Below, piece after piece: positions 3,453-64,000 of a stretch of 64,000 bases of DNA (its first letter is position 1; the number at the start of each line of letters is the position of its first letter). The notes beneath the pieces were generated by a model. That model did no database searches. It was not told where the DNA came from and saw only the letters and a list, made by a program, of their open reading frames with translations. The DNA is from a candidate division WOR-3 bacterium (GTDB taxonomy: Bacteria > Hydrothermota > Tepidihabitantia > Tepidihabitantales > Tepidihabitantaceae), in the NCBI GenBank assembly GCA_039801085.1, contig JBDRTY010000001.1, positions 310,852-374,851 of the forward strand, given 5' to 3'. The translations under genes and the position numbers were made by a program.

Positions 3453-3872
3453 GTGAGCACGGGTAAGAACCGATGGTGGCGGCTGGTGGCGGTTTTGCTC
3501 CTGGTCATTGCCGGCAGTGTTCTGGTGATCCTGCCGCACTGGCTGCGGTTCGGCAGGAGAGCAGTAACACCGCTTGTGCTCCAGGGCAGGGGCAGACTGC
3601 CCGGCGGTCCGGCACCGGACACCCTGCTTCTGCTTTACCGGCTGTCACTGGTGTCGGATCCGGAGCTGGGTTCTGACATCTTCCGGCTCGGGCTGGTGGA
3701 GAGTCTGGATTTCGATACGCTGGGGAATGTCCGGGTGGTGCTGGGACTGACAACGCCCTACTGCCCGTTTATTGAGCCGCTGGGCAGGGCGGTGCTCGAG
3801 ACGCTGGTGAATACACCCGGAATCAACGGTGTGACGGTCAGGGTTGACCCGCAAATCCGGGTGCGGCGATGA
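3453..3872 (+). CDS. DUF59/MIP18-family Fe-S cluster assembly-like protein with an N-terminal TM segment
   Basis: C-terminal LGLTTPYCPF...V.V.P motif typical of the DUF59 (SufT/PaaD-like) family. Confidence 0.5.
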   Translation: MSTGKNRWWRLVAVLLLVIAGSVLVILPHWLRFGRRAVTPLVLQGRGRLPGGPAPDTLLLLYRLSLVSDPELGSDIFRLGLVESLDFDTLGNVRVVLGLTTPYCPFIEPLGRAVLETLVNTPGINGVTVRVDPQIRVRR

Positions 3873-4507
3873 GTCCCGGGCTTTTCGTCCGGGCGGTAAT
3901 GCTCGGTCTGTCTGCCGGCACATCCTGTCTCGGTTTCTGTCTGCCGGTGGTGCTGCCGGTGCTTGCCGGTTCGGACCGGGCCGGTTTTTATCCGGCAGCG
4001 GTCCGGCTGTTATCATTTCTGGCGGGCAGGCTGGTCGCCTATCTCCTTTTCGGTATTCTTGCCGGTCTTGCCGGCGCCCGGCTGAGCGGACCTGTTTTCC
4101 TGCGGACAGCAGCACTGCCGGTTATCTATCTCCTGCTGGGCGGATTGATGATAATTTACGGCATTACCGTCTTTGATCCGTTCACCCGGCTCAGGTTCTG
4201 CCGGCTGATTCAGCCCCAGCTCAATTCGGGCCGGTTTCCTTTTCTCCTCGGGCTGCTGGCAGGGGCAAGTCCCTGTCCGCCGTTTCTGCTCGCACTGGCA
4301 ACTGTTCTTGATTACGCCGGCGTGCTCAGCGGGGCGCTGTTCTTTCTGGTTTTCTTTCTGGCGACCTCGGTCTACTTTCTACCGCTGTTATTTGCCGGTT
4401 TTCTTGTCCGTTGGGATCCGCCCCGGAGCGCTGCCCGCATCGTGGCGGTGGTTACCGGATTTTACTTCGTGGTGCTCGCATTGCGCACACTGTTGAGCGT
4501 ATTTTGA
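3869..4507 (+). CDS. Polytopic membrane protein, DsbD/CcdA-like (thiol-disulfide transporter family) candidate
   Basis: About six hydrophobic helices, with Cys in SCLGFCLP and GASPCPPF motifs. Start overlaps the upstream gene (ATGA). Confidence 0.4.
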   Translation: MSPGLFVRAVMLGLSAGTSCLGFCLPVVLPVLAGSDRAGFYPAAVRLLSFLAGRLVAYLLFGILAGLAGARLSGPVFLRTAALPVIYLLLGGLMIIYGITVFDPFTRLRFCRLIQPQLNSGRFPFLLGLLAGASPCPPFLLALATVLDYAGVLSGALFFLVFFLATSVYFLPLLFAGFLVRWDPPRSAARIVAVVTGFYFVVLALRTLLSVF

Positions 4508-48517: not shown

Positions 48518-48704
48518 GGATATACAATATAAAAACCTGATTTTTTGTCAATAACTTGTAATTGGCATGCTGAAGATATAACTTGACTTTGGGCAGGGCA
48601 GGGTTAAGTTTTAACTGCGACAGCATAAGGACCGTCCCGCAATGCGGTCGGCGGGAAAGTCCCAAGTAGTTAGGAAAGAGCTAATAAAGACCGAGGAGGA
48701 GTTA

Positions 48705-51323
48705 ATGAAACACAAGGTCGCGATACTGGCTCTGGTCAGCGTGCTGGCACTGGCACTGGCTGCCGGTCCGGAGGTGACCACGAGCGATGTGAGTCAAGGT
48801 GAACCGCAGAAGGTAAAACTGTATTACGGCACTTATGGGTCAAATGATTATGTCTGGGGAACGGTGAAGACCCAGCTTCCAACCGATGCCTGGCTTTACC
48901 ACAGCGAGATGCCGGGCAGAATGATGGACAATACCTGTGCAACTGACGGCAACTATGTGTATGTGCTTGCTGGATACGGCACAAGCAACGCACTCTACCG
49001 CCATCAGGTCGGGTCAACCACCTGGCAGACGCTGGCACCCTGTCCAATGGATATCTGTAATGGTGGGGCTGCCATCATCGGTGATACACTTTATTACTGC
49101 AGCGGGTATTCTTACACTGTTGGTGCTACCGTTGATACGATGTTCAAATACTGCATCAGCACCAATACCTGGACGAGCGGACCCGGACCATTTACAGGCA
49201 CAACCTATAACTGGCAGCCGCTGGTGCTTGCCTGTGGGGGCAAGCTGTATTACATCAGCGGTTGCAATCAGCCCGGAGCTACCAGTCCGACCCGTGAGGT
49301 CTACTGTTATACACCGGGCAGTGGCTGGTCCCGGGTTGCGGATATGAATCAGGGACGGGTGTTTGCCATGGGCTGTGTCTATCATGATACCATCTGGGTT
49401 ACCGGCGGAAACGTTGACAATGTGGCAATTACCCATTCTGAATTTTATGACCCGGTTTCCAATACTTGGACAGTAAACAATTCCATATTCCCGCAACTCC
49501 CGATTGCCACCTGGGCAGCCGCAAGCGGTGTCGTTGGGCAGACGATGTTTGTCGCCTCAGGTGTGCGGGAGATGGTTGCGCTGATGGACACCTGCCAGTA
49601 TTTTGATTTCGGAACCCGGACTTGGACGGTCACACCTGATGTCCTCCTGCCGGTTTACCGCGGCACGGGTGTTGGCAATGCTGACGGCAAGGCGGTGGTT
49701 TATGGCGGTTCGATCGGCGGGTTTACACCGACGGATACCTGTCAGTATGAGGTGCTGGCAACCGGTAATGCAAATGATGTGGGTGTGATTCAGATTGTGG
49801 CGCCCGGGAGTGTGATTGTGCCGGGTAATGTGACACCGAGAGCGAAAATCAAGAACTTCGGCACCAATGCCCAGTCCAACATTCCAGTTTACTGCTGGAT
49901 TGATTCGGCCGGAACAAGAGTCTACGAGCAGAGTGCTACCTATGCCGGACCGCTGGCACCTGGTGCGACCGCGGATGTGGACTTTTCACCTCAGTGGCGG
50001 GCGGTAGGTGGAACCTACAATGTTACCATGTTTACCGACCTCCCCGGCGATGAATCGCGGGCTAACGATACCCTGCGCGGGACAACTCAGGTGATGCAGT
50101 ATTCAATCGACTGGTATCAGAGCGATACCATCCAGCCTGACCGGGTAAGCCGGACCGCCTGTGTTAATGATGCTCAGGGCAGGCTGCATGTCATCTGCGG
50201 TAACTGCTTTGTTCATACATCACATCCTTCGGATATGATTTATGATACCGTAACTCATACCTGGTCAACCGGACTGACTCATCCCGCTGGCGGTGGTGTG
50301 GGTGTTCACAATCACGATGCAGTGCGGATCAATGATGTAATCTGGGTTGGTGGCGGCAGTTCCGGCTCGGGTTTCTACAACAACCTTACGAAACTGGATC
50401 TTGGTGCCAATACCTGGACTTCTGCAACCGCGATGCCGCAGTCCAATCTGCTTTACTACGCGTTTGGCGAGTATGCGGACTCCGGCTGGGTTTACTGCTT
50501 CGGCGGTTCACCGGATGGTACCGGCGGACCGATCAACAACTGTTACCGGTATGACCCGAACACTAATGCCTGGACCGCAATGGCGAATATGCCTGAAGCG
50601 CGGCGCAATCCCATGGTTGCCCGGGTTGGTGATACCATCTATGTGATTGGCGGTATGTCAACCAATGATTACACATCAACCCGCGGGACGGTGTGGAAGT
50701 ACTCGGTACTCGGCAATACCTGGACCGTGGCAACTGATTCCATGCCGGACCGGCTGGGCTGGGGCAGGGCGGTTACCTACTCCTATTCTGGCGGAACCTT
50801 TATCTATGTGTTCGGCGGCTATCGGGCGGGCACGATTGTTAATACCTGCTGGCGGTATGATGTCAACAGCCACACCTGGACTCAGGACCGGGCGCTGTTG
50901 ACCGCAACCCGTTCGCACGGCGGTTCAATCTCAGGTAACTTCATCTGGGTGGCAGGCGGTTATAACACATCTCCTGGAATTCTGCCCAATGTCCAGAAGG
51001 GTGTTATTGCCCTGACCGGCGTTGAGGAAGGCAAGCCGACTGTCAACTGGGAAGGGATTGAGAGCGTCAGGCCGACGCTGGTCCGTGATTTCTGCCGGAT
51101 CAGTTACAGCTTGCCGGCGCGCAGCAATGTCAATCTGAGTGTATATGATGCGACCGGCTCACTGGTGCGCACGCTGGTTGACGGCACGGTAGCTGCAGGA
51201 AATCAGACGGTGACCTGGGACCGCCGGGATGCGGCGGGCAGGCGGGTTGCTGCCGGGACCTACTTCTACCGGCTGACCATCAACGGCAACTCGGTTTCCG
51301 CCAAGGCGTTGCTTCTGCAGTAA
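48705..51323 (+). CDS. Kelch-repeat protein with a CARDB-like domain and a T9SS C-terminal domain
   Basis: GAGGAGG RBS. Signal peptide. Kelch-like units (GGKLYYISG, DTIYVIGG, WVGGG). CARDB-like VGVIQIVAPGSVIVPGNVTPRAKIKNFG. CTD ...GTYFYRLTINGNSVSAKALLLQ. Confidence 0.6.
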   Translation: MKHKVAILALVSVLALALAAGPEVTTSDVSQGEPQKVKLYYGTYGSNDYVWGTVKTQLPTDAWLYHSEMPGRMMDNTCATDGNYVYVLAGYGTSNALYRHQVGSTTWQTLAPCPMDICNGGAAIIGDTLYYCSGYSYTVGATVDTMFKYCISTNTWTSGPGPFTGTTYNWQPLVLACGGKLYYISGCNQPGATSPTREVYCYTPGSGWSRVADMNQGRVFAMGCVYHDTIWVTGGNVDNVAITHSEFYDPVSNTWTVNNSIFPQLPIATWAAASGVVGQTMFVASGVREMVALMDTCQYFDFGTRTWTVTPDVLLPVYRGTGVGNADGKAVVYGGSIGGFTPTDTCQYEVLATGNANDVGVIQIVAPGSVIVPGNVTPRAKIKNFGTNAQSNIPVYCWIDSAGTRVYEQSATYAGPLAPGATADVDFSPQWRAVGGTYNVTMFTDLPGDESRANDTLRGTTQVMQYSIDWYQSDTIQPDRVSRTACVNDAQGRLHVICGNCFVHTSHPSDMIYDTVTHTWSTGLTHPAGGGVGVHNHDAVRINDVIWVGGGSSGSGFYNNLTKLDLGANTWTSATAMPQSNLLYYAFGEYADSGWVYCFGGSPDGTGGPINNCYRYDPNTNAWTAMANMPEARRNPMVARVGDTIYVIGGMSTNDYTSTRGTVWKYSVLGNTWTVATDSMPDRLGWGRAVTYSYSGGTFIYVFGGYRAGTIVNTCWRYDVNSHTWTQDRALLTATRSHGGSISGNFIWVAGGYNTSPGILPNVQKGVIALTGVEEGKPTVNWEGIESVRPTLVRDFCRISYSLPARSNVNLSVYDATGSLVRTLVDGTVAAGNQTVTWDRRDAAGRRVAAGTYFYRLTINGNSVSAKALLLQ

Positions 51324-51492: not shown

Positions 51493-54333
51493 TCAGCGCA
51501 CAAGAGCAAATCTGGCGATTGACCGTCCAAATGTGGTTTCCAGCACCGCCAGATAGATTCCGGAGCCGGCAGGTTTCCCGGACTCATTCAACCCGTCCCA
51601 GCAGGCATTAATTCCTTCCAGTTCTTCAGAAGCAAAGTATCGTCCCGGAGTCGGCATTCTGGCGGTGTTGAGCTGAACCGTTTTTACCCTGACACCGCTG
51701 GTAGTGTAGATGGTGATCCGGGCGTCCGGAGTGACCCGGCTGAGATTAAGGGCAAAGTAAACCTTCAGGTTTTCCCCGGTAACAAACGGGTTGGGGTAAA
51801 TGAGTGCGATCCGGTCCTGCGGGCTGGGCTGTGTCCTGGGTGATGGCGGGAATCTGCTGAACGCGGAGTCAACACGGGGCACCCCATAACCGAAGGTGCA
51901 GCTTTTCACTGCCCGGCTGGCGGTTGTGTAAAGCGCCACCCGGATTGATTCCGCATTCCATTCGGGGTGTGCCTCCTTGAGCAGGGCACAGCAGCCGGCG
52001 ATCAGGGCGGTGGCACAGGAGGTACCGACGCTGCCTTCAAGGAAGTTTTCCGAATCCGGTGCCGCAACCGCAACGGTATCTGCCAGCGCTACCAGATCGG
52101 GTTTGATTCTGCCGTCAGCGGTCGGTCCGGTACCGGTTCCGCGCCAGGGGGTAAGGTTCTTCTCAACCCCACCGCAGGTGATGACGCCTTCGGCATCGCC
52201 AGGTGCGGTGATATACGGCCGGGGCCAGGGATATTCGGTTGTGTCACGGTTGCCCATCGCGGTGACGATTACCAGCCCGCGGCGTGCTGCCAGCTCGCAG
52301 GCAATTGAGATCGGTGCGGTTCTGCCGTCAAAATGCTCGTCCCGGTACCAGCCCCGATAGCCGAGCGATGTGGAAACAATATCCGCACCGCACTTTTCCG
52401 CCCACTCCAGCGCCTGAATATAGGTATCCTCCTCCATGTTATATTCATATCCCCGGTTGCCGGAAGTCTTGTAATATTCGGTTTTGGCGACAATCAGGTC
52501 GACTCCGGGTGCGATGCCCATCATGGAATAGGGCTGATAACCGGCGATCAGTGAAGCCATTCTGGTGCCGTGATTGGGCTGGTCATAGGAGAACTTCAGT
52601 GTGTCCGAATCTTCCCAGACCGCGATTTCATCACCCCGGCGGAACCAGAGGATGGAACTGTTGTCCGGGGCAGCCACTGGGGAATAGCAGAAACCGAGCG
52701 TATCAACCGGTTCTGTATCACGCCAGCTCATTCCCAAGTCCGGAGTTGTCCGCTGATAGAGCATACCGCCGGATTCGTAAACAAGGGTCAGACCATTGCT
52801 GGTGTGGCTCAGGGTATAATCCCCGAAGGAGCTGGCGGAGTCAATGGTCAGCGGAGAGGACCAGGTGGCGCCGAAGTCCGTTGAGCGGAGCAGATTCAAT
52901 TTTGTCCGGACCGGGTTGCTTTGATCCTGATAAACAAGGAGGCGCAGAGAATCGTGATTTTTTATGGTAAACAGTCTGATGTGTCCGGCACTGCCGGCAA
53001 TCAGTTCTCCATCGGGATTGAAGCTGACACCGCCATCAGTGGAATAAAACTGCCGGACCCGGCCGGTATTTTTCTCCCGGACAAGGAGGTTGATTCTGCC
53101 CTCAGGTCCGGCGCTGAGCTGGGGCTCGGTGAGCGGCTGGTCATGGGTGATTTCGGTATAGAGCAGCCAGTTTGGGGCAGGAGTGGTAATGAGCGCCTTG
53201 CGAAGGGAGATTACGGAATCGCTTTTCAGCCAGGCGGCATAAAGGGTGTCGGCGTAAATTGCCAAACTTGGATGCCTGCCTGTGCCGAGTGTCTGCCGGT
53301 TCTGCCAGCGGTCATTAATGAAATAACCGAGATAACAGGTGGGCGCAGCACCGGGATGCAGATCAACCTCATTAAACGCCAGATAAAATACCGAATCCCG
53401 GCAGTCCAGCTGCAGATTTTCATAAGTGTAGTAATAAGGCCGGGAAACTGCCACCGGCTGCGGCTGGCTCCAGTTTTCTCCCCGGTCAGCAGAAAATGTG
53501 AAGAAGACCGCCCGTGCGGGCAGACCGTAGGTGTAATTGAAACTGTCAGCAACAAAGGCAAGCAGGGTGAGACTGCCGTTGTCGCCCAGTGCCGGGTCCT
53601 TGACCAGACCAAGGTAGCGCAGTCGGGGTATAACTTCAGCTTCTGCTCCTGCATGCCGGATATAAAAATTGTCACCGGACAGAAAGTCATACTGCCGCCA
53701 GATCCGCAGCCGCCGGACCGCCTGGTTCTTGAGCTTCAGCCCGGTGTCAAAGAGCGCCAGTTTCACACCGGTGCCGAACCATCCCTGATAAAAAAGTTTC
53801 GGCACTCCCAGCATCTGCGCCTGATCCCAGGCAGCACCGTAGAACCGGTGGGCATCAGCGGTGTCAAGGGACCGGTAGTTGCGATGTGATTCCGGCTGGG
53901 TAAGCGGGACGGTCAGGTCAAAGGCGGTTTCAGTTTTCCGGGCAACAGGACGGATATCATAAACATAGGGAAGCTGGTAAATTCTCGATACCAGCTCCGG
54001 TGGCATTTCAAAGCTGGCAGCATTCAGCCAGCGGGACACGGTGCGCAGCCGGGCGCCCAGCGCCTCAATTTCCCGAATGTAATCCTGCCGGACCGGCAGG
54101 TCATCAAAGTCAAAGCCGGCAACCGGTTCCCGTGCCCGGCGCTGGAGCTGGGACAGGGATGCGGTCCGGTAGAGGTCAGCAAGCGCCTGCTGATACTGGG
54201 ACTGATTGAATATTCCCTTGTCCGTGAAAAAAACCCAGACCCGGCTGGGGGAGATTTCCGGCGGTGCGGATTTCACCGGAATGCGCACCAGTTCAACTGT
54301 CGCCGGAAGGAAAAGCAGCAGGAAAAGATGCAT
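51493..54333 (-). CDS. S8 subtilisin-family peptidase with a ~400-aa BNR/sialidase-like beta-propeller insertion inside the catalytic domain, and a T9SS C-terminal domain
   Basis: Asp context GVKLALFDTG near residue 190. His (HGTRMASLIAG) and Ser (GTSCATALIAG) only after residue ~600. BNR motifs STDGGVSF and STDFGATWS lie in between. CTD ...GIYLAVLETTFGRSIARFALVR. Confidence 0.6.
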   Translation of the reverse strand: MHLFLLLFLPATVELVRIPVKSAPPEISPSRVWVFFTDKGIFNQSQYQQALADLYRTASLSQLQRRAREPVAGFDFDDLPVRQDYIREIEALGARLRTVSRWLNAASFEMPPELVSRIYQLPYVYDIRPVARKTETAFDLTVPLTQPESHRNYRSLDTADAHRFYGAAWDQAQMLGVPKLFYQGWFGTGVKLALFDTGLKLKNQAVRRLRIWRQYDFLSGDNFYIRHAGAEAEVIPRLRYLGLVKDPALGDNGSLTLLAFVADSFNYTYGLPARAVFFTFSADRGENWSQPQPVAVSRPYYYTYENLQLDCRDSVFYLAFNEVDLHPGAAPTCYLGYFINDRWQNRQTLGTGRHPSLAIYADTLYAAWLKSDSVISLRKALITTPAPNWLLYTEITHDQPLTEPQLSAGPEGRINLLVREKNTGRVRQFYSTDGGVSFNPDGELIAGSAGHIRLFTIKNHDSLRLLVYQDQSNPVRTKLNLLRSTDFGATWSSPLTIDSASSFGDYTLSHTSNGLTLVYESGGMLYQRTTPDLGMSWRDTEPVDTLGFCYSPVAAPDNSSILWFRRGDEIAVWEDSDTLKFSYDQPNHGTRMASLIAGYQPYSMMGIAPGVDLIVAKTEYYKTSGNRGYEYNMEEDTYIQALEWAEKCGADIVSTSLGYRGWYRDEHFDGRTAPISIACELAARRGLVIVTAMGNRDTTEYPWPRPYITAPGDAEGVITCGGVEKNLTPWRGTGTGPTADGRIKPDLVALADTVAVAAPDSENFLEGSVGTSCATALIAGCCALLKEAHPEWNAESIRVALYTTASRAVKSCTFGYGVPRVDSAFSRFPPSPRTQPSPQDRIALIYPNPFVTGENLKVYFALNLSRVTPDARITIYTTSGVRVKTVQLNTARMPTPGRYFASEELEGINACWDGLNESGKPAGSGIYLAVLETTFGRSIARFALVR

Positions 54334-54341
54334 TAATTATA

Positions 54342-54415
54342 TACCCCGCGCAGGAATTGAACCTGCAACCCACGGATTAAGAATCCGTTGCTCTGCCAGG
54401 TTGAGCTAGCGGGGC
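54342..54415 (-). tRNA. tRNA-Lys (anticodon CTT)
   Basis: Acceptor GCCCCGC/GCGGGGT, anticodon loop TTCTTAA, T-loop TTCAATT. Confidence 0.75.
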
Positions 54416-54435
54416 ACAAATTACCATTTTTCATC

Positions 54436-54509
54436 TGCGCCCGGCGCGACTCGAACGCGCAGCCTACGGGTTCGAAGCCCGGCGCTCTATCCAGTTGAGC
54501 TACGGACGC
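54436..54509 (-). tRNA. tRNA-Arg (anticodon TCG). Identity is less certain because of one anticodon-stem mismatch.
   Basis: Acceptor GCGTCCG/CGGGCGC (one G-U pair), anticodon loop CTTCGAA, T-loop TTCGAGT. Confidence 0.6.
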
Positions 54510-54519
54510 ATGCATTCAG

Positions 54520-54595
54520 GGTGAGTGAGGGGACTCGAACCCCCAACATCCTGAGCCACAGTCAGGTGCTCTAACCGAATTGAGCTACACTCACC
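54520..54595 (-). tRNA. tRNA-His (anticodon GTG) with a genomically encoded G-1
   Basis: Extra 5' G paired to C73. Acceptor GTGAGTG/CACTCAC, anticodon loop CTGTGGC. Confidence 0.75.
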
Positions 54596-55720: not shown

Positions 55721-56494
55721 ATGGAGGACATCCGCAAACAGCGGCCTGAGGGTTCGATTCCGATTGACAAGGTCGGGGTCAAGAACCTGCGCTATCCGAT
55801 CGTCCTTCTGGACAGGGCGCACAAGCGTCAGCACACGATCGCCACGATCAGCATGTTTGTTGACCTGCCCAAGGAGCAGCGCGGTACCTTCATGGGCAGG
55901 TTTGTTGAGATCCTCAACCGCTATCACCGGGAGATTGATGTCCACAGGCTGGGCACAATTCTCAGGGAGATGCGGGAACGGCTCGGCGCCAACTCCGCCC
56001 ATCTGGAGATGGAGTTTCCCTACTTTGTGGAGAAGTGTGCACCGGTATCCGGGGTCCGTTCCCAGATGGACTACCGGTGCTGGATCAGCGCCAGCCTGAG
56101 CGACCGGTTTATGCTCCGGCTCGGGGTGGCGGTGCCGGTAACGACCCTGTGTCCCTGTTCAAGGGAGATGTCCGGCAGAGGCGGGCACAACCAGCGGGCA
56201 GAGATCCGGGCGGTCGTGGAGTTCAAGGGGTTTGTCTGGATTGAGGACCTGATTGATCTTCTCGAGGAGTGCGGCTCAAGCGAGGTGTATTCACTGCTGG
56301 AGCGGGAGGATGAGAAGCACCTCACCGCTCAGGCGCTGGACAACCCGGCGTTTGTTGAGGATGTGGTGCGCAAGGTGGCACAGCGGCTTGATGCCCATCC
56401 CCAGATCACCGGTTATGAGGTGGAGGTGGAGAGTTTTGAATCCATCCACCACCACGAAGCCTATGCCTATATCAACCGCTTCCGCTCGGGATGA
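55721..56494 (+). CDS. folE2: GTP cyclohydrolase FolE2/MptA (type IB)
   Basis: IPIDKVGVKNLRYPI...TIATISMFVDLP...CPCS motifs characteristic of FolE2 (DUF198). Confidence 0.7.
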   Translation: MEDIRKQRPEGSIPIDKVGVKNLRYPIVLLDRAHKRQHTIATISMFVDLPKEQRGTFMGRFVEILNRYHREIDVHRLGTILREMRERLGANSAHLEMEFPYFVEKCAPVSGVRSQMDYRCWISASLSDRFMLRLGVAVPVTTLCPCSREMSGRGGHNQRAEIRAVVEFKGFVWIEDLIDLLEECGSSEVYSLLEREDEKHLTAQALDNPAFVEDVVRKVAQRLDAHPQITGYEVEVESFESIHHHEAYAYINRFRSG

Positions 56495-57090
56495 AGACCC
56501 TGCTCGTTGACTGCTACCTCAAGGATGCCGAGTCCCGGCTCGTTTATTACCGGCAGATGATTCAGCCCTGGTCCGAGATTTCTGAGATAAAGCTCGCGGA
56601 GCTGAAACCGGGGCTTGACTTTACTCAATACGATGCGGTGGTGCTCACCGGTTCCCAGTGGATGCTTTCGGAAAGGGATGTGCCCGAACCGGTTAAGGCG
56701 GTGCTCCGCCAGCTGCTCCTGCCGGTGCTCGGCATCTGCTTCGGTCACCAGCTCCTTGCCCGCTCCTTCGGTGCGGAGGTCAAAAGCGGGCCGGAATTCA
56801 TCGACCGGATGGAGCGGATCCGGTTTCAGCCCTGGCGCCTGTTTGCCGGGCTGGCGCCGGAGGCGGAGATGCGGGAGAGCCACCGGGAATATGTCACCCC
56901 GGAATCGCTCGAACGGATGGGCTGGGAGATCGGTGCGGTTTCTTCTTCCTGTCCGGTTGAGGCGATAAGGCATCCCCGGCTCCCGCTCTACGGTGTTCAG
57001 TTCCATCCGGAGCGGTCAGAAATAAATGGCGAAATACTGTTCCGCAACTTCTACGAGATCGTCAAATCAGTCCGCACCGGCCAGGGCTGA
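56491..57090 (+). CDS. Class I glutamine amidotransferase-like protein
   Basis: GICFGHQLL (catalytic Cys) and VQFHPE (His/Glu). Start overlaps the folE2 stop. Confidence 0.6.
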   Translation: MKTLLVDCYLKDAESRLVYYRQMIQPWSEISEIKLAELKPGLDFTQYDAVVLTGSQWMLSERDVPEPVKAVLRQLLLPVLGICFGHQLLARSFGAEVKSGPEFIDRMERIRFQPWRLFAGLAPEAEMRESHREYVTPESLERMGWEIGAVSSSCPVEAIRHPRLPLYGVQFHPERSEINGEILFRNFYEIVKSVRTGQG

Positions 57091-57094
57091 CGCA

Positions 57095-57803
57095 GACACA
57101 GCAAAGAGATTTCTCCGCTCCGGTTGAGATGATCCTTTCTGTCATTCCGAGTGGAGCGAAGCGGAATCGAGGAATCCCTTTTTTCTTCTTCCGTCATTCC
57201 GAGCCTGTTGAGGAATCTCCTTCAAGAGATTTCTCGACTCCGCCCTTCGGGCTCCGCTCGAAATGACCGAAAGGGAAGTCATTCCGCGCCTGTCGAGGAA
57301 TCGCTTTTAAGGGATTTCTCCACTGCGGTCGAAATGACGAAAAGGGAAGTCATTCCGGGCTTGTCGAGGAATCTCTTTTAAGCGATTTCTCCACTCCGCC
57401 TCGCTCTGCTCGGCTCCGGTCGAAATGACCGAAAAAAAATGTGCCTGCGGCTTCGCTCCGGTCGAAATGACCCTTACTTGTCATTCCGGGTGGAGCGAAG
57501 TGGAAGCGGTGAATCTCCTTTTTCTCAGACTGAGAGGGATTTCTCGACTGCGCTCGAAATGACCCAAACAGGTTACTGCGGTCGGATAGACCTCTGCGGG
57601 TCGTTCCATGCCTTTCTTTTATTGTCATTCCGAGTGAAGCGAAGCGGAATCGAGGAATCTCTCTTTTCTTCTTCCGTCATTCCGCGCCTGTCGAGGAATC
57701 TTCTTCAAGAGATTTCTCGACTCCGCCCTTCGGGCTCCGCTCGAAATGACCGTTTTATTATTGTGTCATTCCGGGCGAGGCGTCAGCCGAGTCGAGGAAT
57801 CGG
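57095..57803. repeat. Tandem array (about 9 units) of degenerate imperfect-palindromic repeats (gtcattccg...cgaggaatc...gatttctc...cgaaatgac), 40-80 nt each, separated by ~10-nt a/g-rich linkers
   Basis: Unit starts at 57141, 57193, 57278, 57349, 57480, 57624, 57676, 57765. Each unit's two arms are near-reverse-complements (gtcattYcg / cgRaatgac, cgaggaatc / gatttctcg). Confidence 0.7.
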
Positions 57804-57823
57804 TAAATCAGTGCAAAATGCAA

Positions 57824-57864
57824 AATCTGTCAAGCTGTTGACAGATTCAAATGCTGCTTATAAT
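57824..57864 (+). promoter_or_regulatory. Sigma70-like promoter (TTGACA-N15-TATAAT), with a perfect 10-bp inverted repeat AATCTGTCAA-gctg-TTGACAGATT over the -35. Candidate operator.
   Basis: IR arms at 57824..57833 and 57838..57847. -35 at 57838..57843, -10 at 57859..57864. Confidence 0.5.
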
Positions 57865-57884
57865 TACTGTGAGCCGATGAGTTT

Positions 57885-57909
57885 CTACTCTACTCTACTC
57901 TACTCTACT
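57885..57909 (+). repeat. (CTACT)5 pentanucleotide microsatellite in the 5' leader
   Basis: ctactctactctactctactctact lies ~20 nt downstream of the -10. The paralogous locus has 10 copies. Confidence 0.8.
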
Positions 57910-58056
57910 CTACTCCTTATTACTCCAATATCTTAACCCCTCGGGTGAGGTGCGGGCAGGCAGGCGGTGCTGCTGGCGGCAGTCTGCTGCCAGCGGTTGG
58001 AAGTCAGCAGGCAACCTGATAGATTTAAATCATTAAAAGCGGAAAGGAGGTTGAGG

Positions 58057-59658
58057 ATGAAAAAGGCAAGTTTGTTCAGGTTGCTGATTTTAAGCACCGC
58101 AGTGCTCGCGGGGGCGATGTTAGCACAGGAGTGGGAAAGGCTGGAAGATGTGCCGGTTCCGGTTCAGCGCTGGGCATGTCTGACATATTCCTACAGCGAG
58201 TATGGTTCAAGGTCCTATGACACGGTCTGGGGTGTCTTTCCGGCACCTGCCTACGGCAAAACCTGGTTCCTTTATTACGACTGTGTTGACGGCCACTGGC
58301 ATTATCCCGCTGATTCGGTGATCAACCGGGATATGAAACAGACCGCTTTGACCTTTCAATGGCTGGAAGAGGGAGTTGTTTATCTTGTGGGGCAGACATT
58401 GGACGGAGACAACCTCTTCTGGTATCCGTTGAATGAAGGGCGCTGGCATTCAGAGCCGATAACTGCCTTTGCTCTTGGTCCCCGTCCCGGGCTGGCATAT
58501 AAAGCAAATCCCGGCTACAACCAGCAGCTTGAGCCGATACCGGGCTGGCTTTACTGTCTTGCCGGTGGTGGTCAGCAGTTCTGGCGCTACTGGCTGCCGA
58601 GCAGTTATCCGCCGGTGACGGTGGATGGCATCTACCCGGCTCAGGGTGCCCTGATTGCAGATCAGACACCGGTGTTCATCTGGCAGGAGGAAGGGGCAGC
58701 GATTGAATACCGGCTGGTGGTGGCGACCGATCCACAGTTTAGTAACACGGTGATCAATGTCATCACCACGGTGCCGCAGTATTAGGTGGAGACCAGACTG
58801 GCAAATGGCGACTATTACTGGCAGACCGCATCCCGGAGTGCAGGCAGTGGCTGGAAGACCGGACCGGTGCACAGCTTCCGGCTTCAGGGTGGCTGGGAGC
58901 GGCTGGCAGATATCCCGACGCGGGTTGGTGATGGCGGGGCGCTTGCCTACTGCGGGAAGTTCTTCGGCACATCTTCAGACATCTTCATTGCCTTTGTCGG
59001 GGGCGGCGACACCGTCTGCTACGCCTATGTGGACGAGTATAATCGCTGGGTGCGGCTGTATAGTGAAGAGTATGTGCCTCCGCAGAACATCGGCGCAGCT
59101 CTGAGTGCGCATCGGGGGCTTTATATGGACCGAGGGACTCCTTATGCTATTTGGGGGATTGGTGATAACTATTTTCGATTTTATGAGTGGGGGAGATGGA
59201 CTCAAGGAGCTCCAGCGCTCCCAGAAGATATCGGGCCGGGTGCATCTTTAGCTGTGGGGCGGTACCATTTACAACCTTATGGCGCTTATCTTTACTTCAT
59301 TCCCGGGTCCGATCCAAGAAATGGAACACCAAGAGTCTCCTTCTGGCGAAAGCTGGTCTTTGCTTATGACGGGCAGACAAAGGTACAGAAGTCGGGTGGA
59401 ATGGGTGATGAGGGGTTGTATAGCAATCAGATGATTCTGGCTGGTGGTAAAGGGGTGATAGCTTATGTGCTGGACCGACCGGCGAATGTGCGGATAGCGG
59501 TTTTTGATGCTGCGGGCAGAAGGGTTGCTCTGCCATATGCTGGCAGGCAGGATGGAGGTCACCATCTGGTCCGCTGGCATTTCAAGGGTGCCGGAGCGTA
59601 TTTTGTCCTTGTTGACATTGACGATGAAAGGCATAAATTCAAGGTGGTTGTGCGGTAG
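58057..59658 (+). pseudogene. T9SS-secreted surface protein (paralog of 61698..63545) with an in-frame TAG at 58783..58785 inside a conserved Fn3-like segment
   Basis: GAAAGGAGG RBS. Signal peptide MKKASLFRLLILSTAVLAG is identical to the paralog. ORFs 57967..58785 and 58786..59658 share frame 1. CTD ...GAYFVLVDIDDERHKFKVVVR. Confidence 0.55.
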
Positions 59659-59716
59659 AACAAAGGTAAAGGCGGCGGGGCGGAATTGCCCCGCCGCACA
59701 AAGGGGCAGAGGGTTG

Positions 59717-61060
59717 ATGGCTTATTTCCTTTTAATTTTCCTTTGTCCTGCGACTGTCTTCGGACAGGTGGTGGAGCTGGACACAGTATTGACTTTCCCT
59801 CAGCGGATTCTGAATGGTTTTTATGTCTCCGAGTTGAATAAATTATACATTTCCAGCCGTAACAAGATTTATGTGGTTGACTGTTCAACCTGTCAGATGG
59901 GTGAGATTCCGATCAGCTGGGGAGGTGATAATCATTTTGCTTATAATCAGCAGGGCAGGAAATTGTATGTGAAGGACCAGGGATACAGTGACAGTGTGGC
60001 GGTGATTGATGTGCTGGGCGATACGGTTATTAAATGGATTTCAATCAGCGGTATTCAGGCAAGGAACTTGGCTTATGCCAGGAATACTAACCGGCTGTAT
60101 TTCGGTGGTGTGCGGCTTTGTGTAGTGAACTGTGATAATGACAGCATTATCAGGGAGATTGCTCCTCCTCTTTCCGGTTACTATTTCGCGGCGGCGGACT
60201 GGGATGCTGAGCAAATGAAGCTTTATGTGTCATTAGCGAGATGGGGGTATCCGCCGATGATGGCGGTCTATGATACGAGTGAGTCGCTGGTGGCGCTGTT
60301 GCGGGTTCCGATTGTTGAGCCGTTTGCCCTGCAGTTTCATCATCAGCTGGGCAAGGCATATTTTGCCGGCTATGCCATGGATTGTGCGGGTGTGATTGAC
60401 ACGAAAAACGACACCTTTGTTCGCTGGTTTCCGATTCTGGTTGTGTATTCCGGCCTGGTTCCCTATGCGCTGGATACGATTGACGACAAGTTCTACTGTG
60501 CAGCTGCGCGTCAGCATTGGCCCGACACGCTGTATGTGATTGACTGTGTGACCGACTCCATCGTCAAAAAGCTCCTGGAGGCGGGCTGGGGACCTTTGTC
60601 GGTGCGCTGGGCGGCCTGGAGCAACCGGCTGTATTTCACCGGTGGTCCGCGTGGTGAGACGCTGAAGGTCCTGGACTGCCGGACCGATTCGGTGATTGAC
60701 CGGGTGTATCTGGAGGAGTATAGCCTCTTCGGGCCGCCGGACATTGAGCTGGACCCGGTCCGGCACCGCATCTTTGCGATTGGCTGTGACAGCGCGCTGT
60801 ATGTTCTGCGCGAGCTGGAGCAGGGGGTTGAGGAGGAGCGGAGCAACAATCCGGGGCGGTCAGCGCCCACAGTGGTGCGGGGTGTGCTGTATCTGCCGGA
60901 GCGGGCAGGAGCGGCAGGTAAGCCGGTGCTGGTGGACATCACCGGCAGGCGGGTGCGGGAGCTTGTGCCCGGTGCCAATGATGTGCGGGGTCTGGTACCA
61001 GGGGTGTATTTTGTCCGCAGCAATGCCGGCGTGGAACGCAAAGTAGTGATTGCACGGTAG
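59717..61060 (+). CDS. YVTN-family beta-propeller repeat protein with a T9SS C-terminal domain
   Basis: Signal peptide MAYFLLIFLCPATVFGQ. Repeated KLYVS/NRLYF(T)G units. CTD ...GVYFVRSNAGVERKVVIAR. Confidence 0.55.
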   Translation: MAYFLLIFLCPATVFGQVVELDTVLTFPQRILNGFYVSELNKLYISSRNKIYVVDCSTCQMGEIPISWGGDNHFAYNQQGRKLYVKDQGYSDSVAVIDVLGDTVIKWISISGIQARNLAYARNTNRLYFGGVRLCVVNCDNDSIIREIAPPLSGYYFAAADWDAEQMKLYVSLARWGYPPMMAVYDTSESLVALLRVPIVEPFALQFHHQLGKAYFAGYAMDCAGVIDTKNDTFVRWFPILVVYSGLVPYALDTIDDKFYCAAARQHWPDTLYVIDCVTDSIVKKLLEAGWGPLSVRWAAWSNRLYFTGGPRGETLKVLDCRTDSVIDRVYLEEYSLFGPPDIELDPVRHRIFAIGCDSALYVLRELEQGVEEERSNNPGRSAPTVVRGVLYLPERAGAAGKPVLVDITGRRVRELVPGANDVRGLVPGVYFVRSNAGVERKVVIAR

Positions 61061-61423
61061 GAAAGGGATTTCTCCACTGCGCTCGAAATGACATAAACAG
61101 GTTACTGCGGTCGGATAGACCTCTGCGGGTCGTTCCATGGCTTTGCTTTCTTGTCATTCCGAGTGAAGCGAAGCGGAATTGAGGAATCCCTTTTTTCTTC
61201 TTCCGTCATTCCGCGCCTGTCGAGGAATCTCCTTCAAGAGATTTCTCGACTCCGCCCTTCGGGCTCTGCTCGAAATGACCGAAAGAGAAGTCATTCCGCG
61301 CCTGTCGAGGAATCTCTTTTAAGCGATTTCTCCACTCCGCCTCGCTCTGCTCGGCTCCGGTCGAAATGACCGTTTTATTATTGTGTCATTCCGCGCGAGG
61401 CGTCAGCCGAGTCGAGGAATCGG
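61061..61423. repeat. Second, shorter copy of the tandem palindromic-repeat array (4-5 units), homologous to 57525..57803
   Basis: Unit starts at 61153, 61205, 61290, 61385. Also shares the unique ~60-nt segment caaacaggttactgcggtcggatagacctctgcgggtcgttccatg. Confidence 0.7.
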
Positions 61424-61443
61424 TAAATCAGTGCAAATTGCAA

Positions 61444-61485
61444 AATCTGTCAAGCTGTTGACAGAATTCAAATTCTGCTTATAAT
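61444..61485 (+). promoter_or_regulatory. Paralogous promoter/operator: AATCTGTCAA-gctg-TTGACAGAAT, then TTGACA-N16-TATAAT
   Basis: -35 at 61458..61463, -10 at 61480..61485. One-base insertion in the right IR arm and spacer relative to copy 1. Confidence 0.5.
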
Positions 61486-61505
61486 TACTGTGAGCCGATG
61501 AGTTT

Positions 61506-61555
61506 CTACTCTACTCTACTCTACTCTACTCTACTCTACTCTACTCTACTCTACT
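61506..61555 (+). repeat. (CTACT)10 pentanucleotide microsatellite in the 5' leader
   Basis: Ten perfect tandem CTACT copies. The flanks are identical to the (CTACT)5 locus. Confidence 0.8.
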
Positions 61556-61697
61556 CCTTATTACTCCAATATCTTAACCCCTCGGGTGAGGTGCGGGCAG
61601 GCAGGCGGTGCTGCTGGTGGCAATCTGCTGCCAGTGGTTGGAAGTCAGCAGGCAACCTGATAGATTTAAATCATTAAAAGCGGAAAGGAGGTTGAGG

Positions 61698-63545
61698 ATG
61701 AAAAAGGCAAGTTTGTTCAGGTTGCTGATTTTAAGCACCGCAGTGCTCGCGGGTATTGCGTTTGGAAGATGGGAGCCGCTTGATCCGGTTGGCGATGGTG
61801 AAGTGGTTGGTCCTGGCGGCTGTGCGGCACGGGGTAGGGGCTACACCTTCGTTGCAATAGGGGATGGGAGGAGGAAGGTATATGCATTTGATCATGAGGG
61901 TGAAATGTGGGATGAAATAGAAGTACCGATGCCCGAGGCAATTGATTATGCCGGCGCGATGGCATATGAACTTGGATATGGACGTCATTTGTATGTTGTG
62001 ACTGATGAAAGCGGAGGAAAACTTCAGGTGTATCGTTTTTATGAAAATGAAGACTTGGAAGGCGAGTGGTTGCCACCGATTCCATTACCGGAATCAATCG
62101 GTCCTGGTGTGGCACTGGCCTTTGTTCCCTGTGTGAGGGCAGACACAACCCATATTGGTGACCTTTACCTTCTGGTGGGAAAATGCACCCGACATTTTTA
62201 CCGGCGTTCATTTGACTGGATCGCCGAGCTTGATGCCCTCGGTCCGGGCAATGATGCGGAAATAACGGTGCAGGATATCTGTCTTGACTGGCTCCCTGAT
62301 CCCTGGTGGGATTCATACCGGTTACAGGTGTCATCCAATGCAGATTTTACCAGCCTGGTGCTGGATACGGTGATATCGGTTGGTGAATTCAAACCAGCAG
62401 GTGCGGTATTCCCCTCTGCAACCGGCACTTATTACTGGCGGGTCCGGGGTATTAAAGACGGGCATCACTCGGACTGGTCCGAAGCTCAAAGTTTCACTTT
62501 AGCCCAGCAGAATACCTCTCTCAATTACGAGATTATTCCTGCCGATGGGTTGCTGATAAGCGGTGATGAGCTGGTATTTGACTGGCAGCCTCAGAGTGAT
62601 GCGGAATCCTACCGGCTGCAGGTGGCGCTATCCCCGGATTTTTCCGAGCCGGTGATTGATGTTATTACCGATGTGAGTGAATGGGTGGCAGAGCAACCGC
62701 TTGAGACTGGCACATACTACTGGCGGGTGTGCTGCCGGAGAGCAAATGGCTGGGACAGCTGGACTCAACCGATTGAGTTTCAGGTTGAATACGGCTGGCA
62801 GCGACTGCCGGACATTCCATCTGACACCCCGGTTGGAGCCGGTGGTGCGATGTGCTATGTTAAGGCCAGGGATGGTGATACTATGGCACTCTATGTGCTG
62901 GTGGGGAATGGCAGCAGTCAGTTCTGGCGGTTCAATCTCAGTGAGGGTGGAGTCTGGCAGGAGCGGGCTGAAACCCCTTATCCGCAGACCGGCGGCGCAG
63001 CAATTACATCATATCAGAGGTGGCAGCAATCAAGCGACCTGTGGGCGATTTTTGGCGATTTGGTGGAATTCAGGCGTACTTTCAAAATAAATCATAACGG
63101 TTGGGCGAGAATTGATCATCCTCTTCCCCGGGTTTGCGAATACGGTTCATCGATTGTTCGCAACGAGCCTGATTACCATCTTGTTTTAGTCGTTGCCGGT
63201 GAATATCCTGAGGACAGCACCAACTTTTATGCCTGGGTGCCGGATACGGCTAAGGACGGAGAGGAGGGTGCGCAGGCGCGGTCGGCGGGCTTTGGTCCAG
63301 CCGATGTCCGGTTTGGGCGCACCGGCTCTGATCTGTGGCTGAATTACACGCTCTCGGAGCCGGCAGCAGTGGATATCGGTCTGTTTAACCCTGCGGGTCA
63401 GAAGGTGGCAAGTTTATATTCAGGGTGGCAAAGCGCCGGTTGTCATCAGCACCGATACAGACCCGGTTCGCTGATAAAGGGGGTTTGCTTTATCAGGGTT
63501 GACATTGCGGGCAGAAGCACTACTATCAAGCTAACCGCATGGTAG
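61698..63545 (+). CDS. T9SS-secreted surface protein with two Fn3-like modules (intact paralog of 58057..59658)
   Basis: GAAAGGAGG RBS and the same signal peptide. Repeated YRLQVS..DF......TGTYYWRV modules. CTD ...GVCFIRVDIAGRSTTIKLTAW. A GC hairpin follows at 63560..63584. Confidence 0.6.
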   Translation: MKKASLFRLLILSTAVLAGIAFGRWEPLDPVGDGEVVGPGGCAARGRGYTFVAIGDGRRKVYAFDHEGEMWDEIEVPMPEAIDYAGAMAYELGYGRHLYVVTDESGGKLQVYRFYENEDLEGEWLPPIPLPESIGPGVALAFVPCVRADTTHIGDLYLLVGKCTRHFYRRSFDWIAELDALGPGNDAEITVQDICLDWLPDPWWDSYRLQVSSNADFTSLVLDTVISVGEFKPAGAVFPSATGTYYWRVRGIKDGHHSDWSEAQSFTLAQQNTSLNYEIIPADGLLISGDELVFDWQPQSDAESYRLQVALSPDFSEPVIDVITDVSEWVAEQPLETGTYYWRVCCRRANGWDSWTQPIEFQVEYGWQRLPDIPSDTPVGAGGAMCYVKARDGDTMALYVLVGNGSSQFWRFNLSEGGVWQERAETPYPQTGGAAITSYQRWQQSSDLWAIFGDLVEFRRTFKINHNGWARIDHPLPRVCEYGSSIVRNEPDYHLVLVVAGEYPEDSTNFYAWVPDTAKDGEEGAQARSAGFGPADVRFGRTGSDLWLNYTLSEPAAVDIGLFNPAGQKVASLYSGWQSAGCHQHRYRPGSLIKGVCFIRVDIAGRSTTIKLTAW

Positions 63546-63604
63546 CGGAGATAAAACCGGGAGGGGCGGATCCGTCCCCTCCCGACATTCAGGAAGACTG
63601 GGCA

Positions 63605-64000
63605 ATGAGGATTGTATTGTTGCTCTCTTTATTAACCGCTTCAGCAGATGCCGGTCTGGTGCTGGATACGATTCTGCCGGTTCCGGACCCGGTAGAATTT
63701 ATGTATCTGGTTCCGGCCTTCAACAAGCTGTATGCAGGTGGGCGGAGTGCCCGTATCTATGTGTTTAACTGTGAAGATGAGGAGCTTACTGGTATTATTT
63801 CGCCTTCGGGATTTGGCGAGGTTTATCCCTATCCGGCATGGGCAGCGCAACACAACAAGTTATACTTTCCAGTCTCTCACAACCCCATTTCTGATGAGAG
63901 CTGTGCCTTGGCCGTAGTGGATGTTACTACCGACTCCCTTCTAAAGGTGATTGAATTAAATACACGTTATTGGGGTAGCTCTTACTTTCCGATTGCCTGG
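63605..64000 (+). CDS. Secreted beta-propeller-like protein, YVTN-type (5' part; continues past the window end)
   Basis: AGGAAG RBS-like 8 nt upstream. Signal peptide MRIVLLLSLLTASADA. Open frame to the window end with KLYAGG / KLYFPV repeat signatures. No in-frame stop, so it is absent from the ORF track. Confidence 0.45.
   Translation, partial: MRIVLLLSLLTASADAGLVLDTILPVPDPVEFMYLVPAFNKLYAGGRSARIYVFNCEDEELTGIISPSGFGEVYPYPAWAAQHNKLYFPVSHNPISDESCALAVVDVTTDSLLKVIELNTRYWGSSYFPIAW

Follow-up and report, generated by a model that had tools for sequence, protein, structure and literature searches.

Near-identical junctions between the modules of a tandem array of putative surface-protein genes in a candidate division WOR-3 bacterium

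The right-hand end of a 64,000-nucleotide stretch of the genome of a candidate division WOR-3 bacterium (the whole stretch is referred to here as the window) carries a tandem array of genes for putative cargo proteins of the type IX secretion system (T9SS), alternating with genes for YVTN beta-propeller proteins. Two of the cargo genes, A and B, begin in near-identical regulatory regions of 0.6-0.9 kb, here called head A and head B, each consisting of predicted terminator hairpins, a strong predicted promoter, a leader containing a Shine-Dalgarno (SD) sequence and the start of a signal peptide. A first-pass annotation of this DNA had described the two heads as a segmental duplication, with a YVTN gene (59717-61060) lying between the copies, and this description is borne out by a repeat finder, by pairwise alignment and by BLAST. 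The features of the locus, some of which were delimited with Tandem Repeats Finder (TRF), are as follows.

56491-57090, + strand: class-I glutamine amidotransferase gene (Pfam GATase, E = 5e-25), the conserved left flank, which also precedes the array in the related contigs L017 and L018
57091-57531, + strand: extra tandem hairpin units (GTCATTCCG...CGAAATGAC), ahead of head A only
57532-57764, + strand: first part of head A: half a hairpin unit, then a unique segment of ~60 nt and further hairpin units, the last of them with GTTTTATTATTG after it; 94% identical to 61061-61281
57812-57826, + strand: (TGCAAAA)2 heptamer tract of head A, just upstream of the -35 element (TRF)
57826-57864, + strand: predicted promoter of head A, read from the sequence, with the palindrome TCTGTCAA-gctg-TTGACAGA over the -35 element TTGACA (57838-57843), a 15-nt spacer and the -10 element TATAAT (57859-57864)
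57884-57915, + strand: (TCTAC)6.4 pentamer tract of head A, 19 nt past the -10 element, in the predicted 5' untranslated region (TRF, 100% matches)
57916-58056, + strand: leader of head A, with the pyrimidine tract CUCCUU (anti-SD), a 13-bp hairpin (57969-57997) and the SD sequence GGAAAGGAGG (58041-58050) (folding)
58057-59658, + strand: cargo gene A, for a beta-rich secreted protein, with codons 1-19 in the shared head and an in-frame TAG at 58783-58785
59717-61060, + strand: YVTN beta-propeller gene Y1 (TIGR02276, E = 1.6e-8), the last 188 nt of which (60873-61060) belong to the junction described below
61061-61697, + strand: head B, with hairpin units and a terminator-like hairpin (61290-61384), TGCAAAT TGCAAAA (61432-61445), the palindrome (61446-61465), the leader hairpin (61610-61638) and the SD sequence (repeat finder, alignment, TRF, folding)
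61505-61556, + strand: (TCTAC)10.4 pentamer tract of head B, 19 nt past the -10 element (TRF, 100% matches)
61698-63545, + strand: cargo gene B, intact, 615 aa, with codons 1-19 in the shared head; the product is identical to P0121 (candidate division WOR-3 bacterium)
63605-64000, + strand: YVTN gene Y2, which runs past the end of the window; 33% identical to Y1

Two collinear stretches account for the match between the loci. Positions 57532-57752 and 61061-61281 are 94% identical over 221 nt (repeat finder, MAFFT), and 57753-58112 and 61373-61753 differ by 6 substitutions per ~353 nt (98%, by alignment). Over their whole length head A (57532-58112) and head B (61061-61753) are ~97% identical, with a figure of 98% from the T-tract after the hairpins to codon 19 of the signal peptide. 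A ~580-nt match at this level cannot, on comparison of the two sequences, be attributed to chance. Nor is the likeness confined to the coding N-terminus, as promoter, leader and hairpins are also alike. Three indels separate the copies: a 91-nt hairpin unit (61282-61372) that is extra in head B, a single nucleotide of the promoter spacer (15 nt in head A, 16 nt in head B), and 20 nt that correspond to four TCTAC units, the pentamer tract having 6.4 copies in head A and 10.4 in head B. The identity ends abruptly, within a few bases past codon 19 of the signal peptide (MKKASLFRLLILSTAVLAG), and not at about codon 25 as had been proposed. Downstream of this point the proteins are diverged paralogues, as the first-pass annotation had recognised, with 31% identity over the C-terminal ~340 aa only. 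When head A was compared by BLAST with the whole window, copies A and B were the only two found.

Head B begins directly after the YVTN stop codon with half a hairpin unit and the unique ~60-nt segment. Two to three long palindromes, all imperfect, and GTTTTATTATTG come next, and then a further half unit and two TGCAAAA-like heptamers. The hairpin block sits directly 3' of a YVTN stop codon both at window position 61061 and at position 13005 of L018, while the stretch of extra units before head A is much shorter in L017 and L018. Folding of the hairpin units gave z-scores of -4.2 to -4.4 (the hairpin at 57676-57750 has a predicted energy of -33 kcal/mol and z = -4.2). The last unit is followed by UUUUAUUAUU, and this last hairpin with its T-tract looks like an intrinsic terminator, as judged from the sequence. 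Within the window and the flanks available in L018 and L019 (~35 kb, making ~100 kb in total) the hairpin units were found at this locus only and on the + strand only.

The predicted promoter of head B (TTGACA at 61458, 16 nt, TATAAT at 61485) is the sole 12/12 match to the sigma-70 consensus in the 6.8 kb scanned, in a scan that allowed spacers of 16-18 nt and in which head A, with its spacer of 15 nt, is thus unlisted. The head A spacer is one base shorter than that of every other head, one A having been lost from an AA pair. Two forms of the spacer, a (CAAATTCTG) and b (CAGATTTGG), are found among the heads. A switch of the type known from the Vlp proteins was looked for, and no homopolymeric tract is present in the spacer between -35 and -10. 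The palindrome over the -35 element differs between related contigs: comparison of L017 658-677 with window 57826-57845 shows a paired change, AAGCTGTT to AATCTATT, that lengthens it, and at ~9767-9790 of L018 its left arm has been lost. A role of the palindrome as an operator is therefore uncertain. An exact scan of genome contigs for the 20-nt palindrome with the -35 hexamer found none, and the representative genomes therefore either are without this head or have a differing version of it.

The predicted promoter is bracketed by two different short tandem repeats, both of which vary in length. The heptamer upstream of the -35 element ranges from ~1 to 5 units, with 2 in the window, 3 in both heads of L003, ~3 in L019, ~5 in L020 and ~1 in L018. 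The pentamer has 2, 3, 5, 5, 5, 6, 6 and 10 units in eight heads, and L020 has ~2. Variant units are found inside the pentamer tracts (TTTAC three times, CCTAC twice, and TGTAC), and these internal variants must, to judge from their arrangement, have been spread by slippage. In the most direct comparison, which is subject to the caveat on L001 given below, the head of gene B has 10 units in the window, against 6 in contig L001, the two sequences being otherwise identical over 2611 nt. A perfect, slippable repeat thus lies 5' of a surface-protein gene and its length is polymorphic among close relatives, as is expected of a contingency locus. Phase variation by means of these two promoter-adjacent repeats, which formed no part of the reasoning of the first-pass annotation, is possible on this evidence.

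Between the CUCCUU tract and the 13-bp hairpin the leader of head B has a G-rich stretch, and the hairpin is followed by the SD sequence GGAAAGGAGG and the ATG. For every head the folding ensemble predicts pairing of the SD sequence with the pyrimidine tract right after the repeat. The segment 57969-58039, which takes in the 13-bp hairpin together with another small stem, is more stable than expected (z = -3.4), whereas each whole leader is no stabler than shuffled sequence (z = 0.0 and +1.1). In searches of Rfam the heads gave no match at the gathering threshold, the best sub-threshold hits (E = 0.23 and 0.37) falling far below the gathering score. An upstream open reading frame (ORF) runs from an ATG 12 nt past the -10 element through the pentamer tract (window 57877-57936 and 61498-61677; L017 708-845; L018 9825-9962), and two public annotations list it as a gene of 45 aa. 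It is 18-59 aa long; its frame and length change with repeat number, and its stop position also varies among heads. Its ATG is too near the predicted transcription start for a usual ribosome-binding site, and the ORF was set aside except in the speculative version of the reading given below.

Cargo gene A is interrupted in the window. The TAG at 58783-58785 is CAG in the L018 ortholog, and glutamine occupies this position in all A-family orthologs; the TAG is therefore read as a recent inactivation. Cargo A looks like a fresh pseudogene on this comparison and its module looks freshly inactivated, and it is the same copy that has the off-optimum 15-nt spacer. A segment of cargo A resembling DUF4962 and Fn3 is seen only via the intact ortholog P0127, whereas cargo B matches directly. 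The AlphaFold model of cargo B (predicted local distance difference test score, pLDDT, 81) is all-beta and multi-domain, resembles an ectodomain of propeller and Fn3 parts, and has a beta-sandwich at its C-terminus (residues 538-614). The first-pass annotation had described the products as T9SS cargo. With TIGR04183, the T9SS C-terminal domain, cargo A reaches 22.9 bits, just under the cut-off (23), cargo B has no match and Y1 has a score of 16 bits; homologs have precomputed matches to PF13860 or PF18962. The assignment is thus likely but borderline, and these proteins are best called putative T9SS cargo. No paper was found in a literature search that combined WOR-3 with type IX secretion. 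Each cargo gene is separated from its YVTN gene by a short spacer with a GC-rich hairpin (59672-59697 and ~63559-63583), and these hairpins could be attenuators or RNA-stabilising elements within the module.

The conserved unit is larger than the head. The part of it that had been recognised as the head stands, but this extent is too small, since conservation also takes in the final 188 nt of the YVTN gene before it: positions 60873-61060, the last 188 nt of Y1, match the 3' end of Y2 at 96.3% identity. To complete the second module for this comparison the contig L001 was used, which matches the window over the 2611 nt mentioned above except for the 20-nt repeat gap. Nucleotide similarity between module 1 and module 2 is limited to the head and the 188-nt YVTN 3' end. 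In L001 hairpin units and a third head (head sequence at 3588-4014) come after Y2, so that a further copy, of the kind that the first-pass annotation had advised looking for, lies just past the end of the window. It follows from the conserved 188 nt and from the third head after Y2 that the repeated block is a junction of ~0.9 kb, with the C-terminal domain of a gene at its left end and the signal peptide of the following gene at its right.

Exact-protein look-ups led to six more assemblies from this lineage. L018 is the only assembly with comparable flanks (96% identity over 9.7 kb). The arrangements found, in which g1 and g2 denote further genes, are as follows.

Window: GATase, head, A (stop), Y1, head, B, Y2, head
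L018: GATase, head, A (intact), Y1, hairpins, then unrelated genes
L017: GATase, head, B (frameshifted), Y2
L003: head, g1, g2, head, B, where g1 shares 49% identity with B and 28% with A
L019: B, Y2, head truncated directly past the heptamers, then a gene of the major facilitator superfamily (MFS)
L020 (more distant): head before an interrupted g1-like gene

Additional copies of the head thus come with variation in what lies behind it, and they do not represent simply a common promoter family without such variation, which the first-pass annotation had named as the outcome that would speak against its proposal. Three independent pseudogenisations are seen, of A in the window, of B in L017 and of g1 in L020. 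The frameshift-split gene B lies at L017 883-2734 (GCA_039801045.1, annotated as P0122 and P0123), and the interrupted g1-like gene at L020 275-2126, in a Logan contig from SRR15510189. When the A-Y1 module was compared with L018 it was found to be 99-100% identical except for sharp patches at ~59120-59350 in A (54%) and ~60030-60250 in Y1 (63%). These patches look, from the alignment, like replaced segments in propeller-like parts of the proteins. A diversity-generating retroelement was considered as their source and rejected, as 54-63% identity over more than 200 nt resembles segment replacement and not adenine-specific mutagenesis. The suggestion that the module is better conserved than its flanks was also set aside as not convincing, with windows of the flanks showing 89-100% identity.

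Evidence for exchange of sequence between heads comes from the distribution of variants among them. In addition to spacer forms a and b, two leader types, I and II, can be distinguished by ~10 differing positions in the 30 nt after the repeat, and the spacer forms and the leader types each differ at at least 3 positions. All four combinations are present: a with I in the window head of B, b with I in the L003 head of g1, a with II in the L003 head of B, and b with II in the L017 head of B. This implies exchange between promoter and leader. Among strains the gene B bodies show 99-100% identity. The head of B in the window has the type I leader, which in other strains is seen on g1 only, and it is identical to window head A in the 77 nt past the repeat, where orthologous B heads elsewhere differ at ~10 positions. 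That the leader segment of B is that of A indicates a conversion event in this lineage. Both heads of L003 have (TGCAAAA)3 together with two substitutions that are absent from both window heads. The signal peptides of A-family orthologs in other species are unrelated to that of the head, which shows the head shared by the A and B families to be a derived feature. Concerted evolution is expected to leave greater likeness within than between genomes, mosaicism and sharp boundaries, and all of these are found here, the boundaries lying at codon 19 and 188 nt before the YVTN stop. Within a genome the junctions are near-identical, as against 30-50% amino acid identity between the module bodies.

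We think it probable that self-contained modules of two genes, a cargo and a YVTN gene, are arrayed in tandem at this locus, and that homologous recombination and gene conversion homogenise their junctions and turn the modules over. Each junction comprises, in order, the last 188 nt of a YVTN gene, hairpin units with the T-tract, (TGCAAAA)n, a predicted sigma-70-type promoter with its -35 element in the palindrome, (YYTAC)n, the leader and 19 codons of the next cargo gene. The (YYTAC)n repeat begins ~13 nt into the predicted transcript, and the leader, of 170-210 nt, has a pyrimidine tract that can pair with the strong SD sequence. Recombination and conversion between junctions would homogenise the heads and could delete, add or swap modules, and slippage in the two repeats beside the core promoter may tune or switch the expression of single modules. 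The outcome would be a set of surface proteins that is variable at the level of the population and that answers to one common regulatory input.

Several points weigh against this reading. Promoter, transcription start and terminator are consensus predictions only, the -35 palindrome is not kept in L018, and the T9SS scores are borderline, as described above. All of the comparison sequences are metagenome bins, and some of the arrangements are known only from short contigs that end inside repeats. The two ends of L001 (1-127 and 3888-4014) are identical over exactly 127 nt, which marks it as a cyclic k=127 contig of the assembly graph, a consequence of the repeated heads; the six units counted in it may therefore be those of the third head and not of head B. 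The predicted accessibility of the SD sequence is nearly flat, falling from 0.39 to 0.29 for n = 0-15 repeats, and folding yields no mechanism for repeat-dependent control.

An alternative is that the duplication is old and that the regulatory region has been kept by purifying selection for a shared regulator and export signal, with no ongoing exchange. Some constraint on leaders is real, as orthologs in other WOR-3 species have a conserved leader of their own, and L020, though more distant, retains the promoter, the leader hairpin, the SD sequence and the signal peptide. Selection of this kind fails to explain the identity at synonymous sites in the signal peptide and in the 188-nt YVTN end, or that of the hairpin array and the linkers. 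It likewise accounts neither for the mosaics of four combinations nor for B heads that differ more between strains than B bodies do, and the unrelated signal peptides of the A family in other species show the shared head to be derived here. We regard this explanation as unlikely. The first-pass annotation had likened the arrangement to cassette-type antigenic or phase variation systems. In a programmed system of the cassette or inversion type a recombinase would move a single promoter or copy silent cassettes into an expression site, as in Mycoplasma Vsp/Vpma/Vsa and Neisseria pilE/pilS. A conserved 5' untranslated region and signal peptide on diverged surface proteins is indeed a hallmark of the vsp and vpma families (PMC2268961), and module content differs among strains. 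Exchange of sequence among heads and the presence of differing modules behind the same head are upheld by the present analysis, but a programmed cassette or inversion system is not: all 8 heads examined have a full promoter, SD sequence and ATG, leaving no single expression site and no silent promoterless cassettes, the array genes are all co-oriented, the repeat finder detected no inverted repeats around the promoter, and no recombinase domain is annotated among the genes called within ~10 kb upstream (L002, L018) or downstream (L018, L019). A programmed system of this type accordingly seems quite improbable.

The palindromic hairpin units with which the head starts resemble repetitive extragenic palindromic (REP) sequences and bacterial interspersed mosaic elements (BIME), and the head might on this account be, or ride on, a small mobile element such as a miniature inverted-repeat transposable element (MITE) or REP-type unit with an outward promoter, inserted before several genes. 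The restriction of the units to one locus and one strand in the ~100 kb surveyed argues otherwise, the head is without bounding terminal inverted repeats or target duplications, and the conserved block enters coding sequence on both sides, as is expected of a homologous tract and not of an insertion; we hold a mobile origin to be very improbable. It is scarcely credible that the duplication arose in assembly, through collapse of a repeat or formation of a chimera in the metagenome bin. Short-read contigs do break inside the head (L001, L002, L003, L016), and L001 is cyclic, but both heads lie within the window, each with substitutions of its own and flanked by unique sequence, and independent assemblies repeat the head-gene junctions in several contexts.

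Homogenisation of the junctions and turnover of the modules by recombination is thus the reading that is preferred here. A bolder version of it would make the junction a purpose-built linker for the shuffling of modules without a recombinase. Since such a junction begins in one gene's sorting domain and ends in the signal peptide of the gene that follows, any crossover inside it would give intact, correctly exported proteins with their own terminator and promoter. The (YYTAC)n repeat and the upstream ORF over the anti-SD tract would then form an undescribed repeat-dependent switch. This version is speculative and we consider it rather doubtful.

The locus can be compared with several known systems, of which the hmw loci of Haemophilus influenzae and the variable lipoprotein families of mycoplasmas come nearest to it in function. 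In H. influenzae hmw1A and hmw2A, two adhesin loci that stem from a duplication, have upstream 7-bp repeats, 9-28 in number, that vary between loci and strains, higher numbers being associated with less transcript (PMC2424069; PMC8262952). Here too paralogous surface-protein loci are duplicated and have an upstream short tandem repeat that varies by locus and strain. The present array differs in having a pentamer after the -10 element in addition to a heptamer before the -35 element, in the effect of the repeats on expression, which is only presumed here, in its putative use of the T9SS where the hmw proteins use two-partner secretion, in the homogenisation of the whole junction from terminator to signal peptide, and in its host, which is uncultivated and presumably free-living. 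In the mycoplasma vsp, vpma and vlp families the conserved 5' untranslated and signal-peptide region extends across a clustered family with divergent mature parts, and each vlp gene has its own promoter, in which a change in the length of the spacer between -35 and -10 switches expression on and off (PMC2268961). The cargo genes likewise have their own promoters, and head A differs from the other heads by one spacer base. Unlike the mycoplasma families, they have no lipobox and no homopolymer in the spacer, they are arranged in two-gene modules, and the conserved block covers the 3' end of the preceding gene; unlike at vsp and vpma, no site-specific recombinase was found near the array and no gene is inverted.

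The babA, babB and babC genes of Helicobacter pylori encode outer-membrane proteins and have near-identical 5' and 3' ends with divergent middles, undergo gene conversion between loci and are switched by 5' repeats. These genes are scattered in the genome of a host-adapted pathogen, and the repeat in them is a dinucleotide within the coding sequence. Paralogues with like ends, exchange and short repeats are common to both systems, the present array being tandem and belonging to a non-pathogen lineage. REP and BIME sequences of enterobacteria are clusters of intergenic imperfect palindromes 3' of genes that can act as terminators or messenger RNA stabilisers and as substrates for recombination. 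The hairpin units of the array are unlike them in being longer (~50-90 nt) and in having one orientation and one locus in the sequence surveyed.

Beyond the array, a Kelch-repeat protein with FlgD_ig/CHU_C matches (48642-51323) and an S8 peptidase with BNR repeats (51493-54333) are encoded upstream; both have T9SS-like tails and are without the head, as is a cluster of three tRNA genes (54342-54594). Protein-guided scans of metagenome and genome contigs found only six loci of other WOR-3 species, none of which has this head. B-family orthologs of other species have a different leader of ~130 nt (L004 320-450; L005 9870-10000; also L010, L011 and L012), which is better conserved than the coding sequence, contains the hairpins CUGCUG...CAGCAG and GUGCAC...GUGCAC and has no Rfam match. 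The contigs of these species tend to break just upstream of the B-family gene.

Because contigs break at the heads, and can form cyclic k-mer contigs there, the gene content of metagenome bins will be under-called precisely where strains differ most, and repeat counts from cyclic contigs require confirmation at the level of reads. The agreement of the promoter with the sigma-70 consensus makes reporter tests in Escherichia coli feasible.

Textbook accounts of host-adapted pathogens feature variable surface loci that combine conserved 5' regions with gene conversion and slippery repeats. The locus described here has all the structural hallmarks of a variable surface-protein locus, yet it belongs to an uncultivated and presumably free-living candidate phylum. 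Two of its features appear to be unusual for such loci: the conserved block extends from a gene's 3' end into the signal peptide of its downstream neighbour, and a consensus promoter is bracketed by two different repeats. Should the repeats control expression, the array would provide a compact, testable case of bet-hedging in a non-pathogen. If the junction were in addition a linker for module shuffling with its own repeat-dependent switch, this would be the first contingency system described in WOR-3, and one driven perhaps by phage and not by host immunity.

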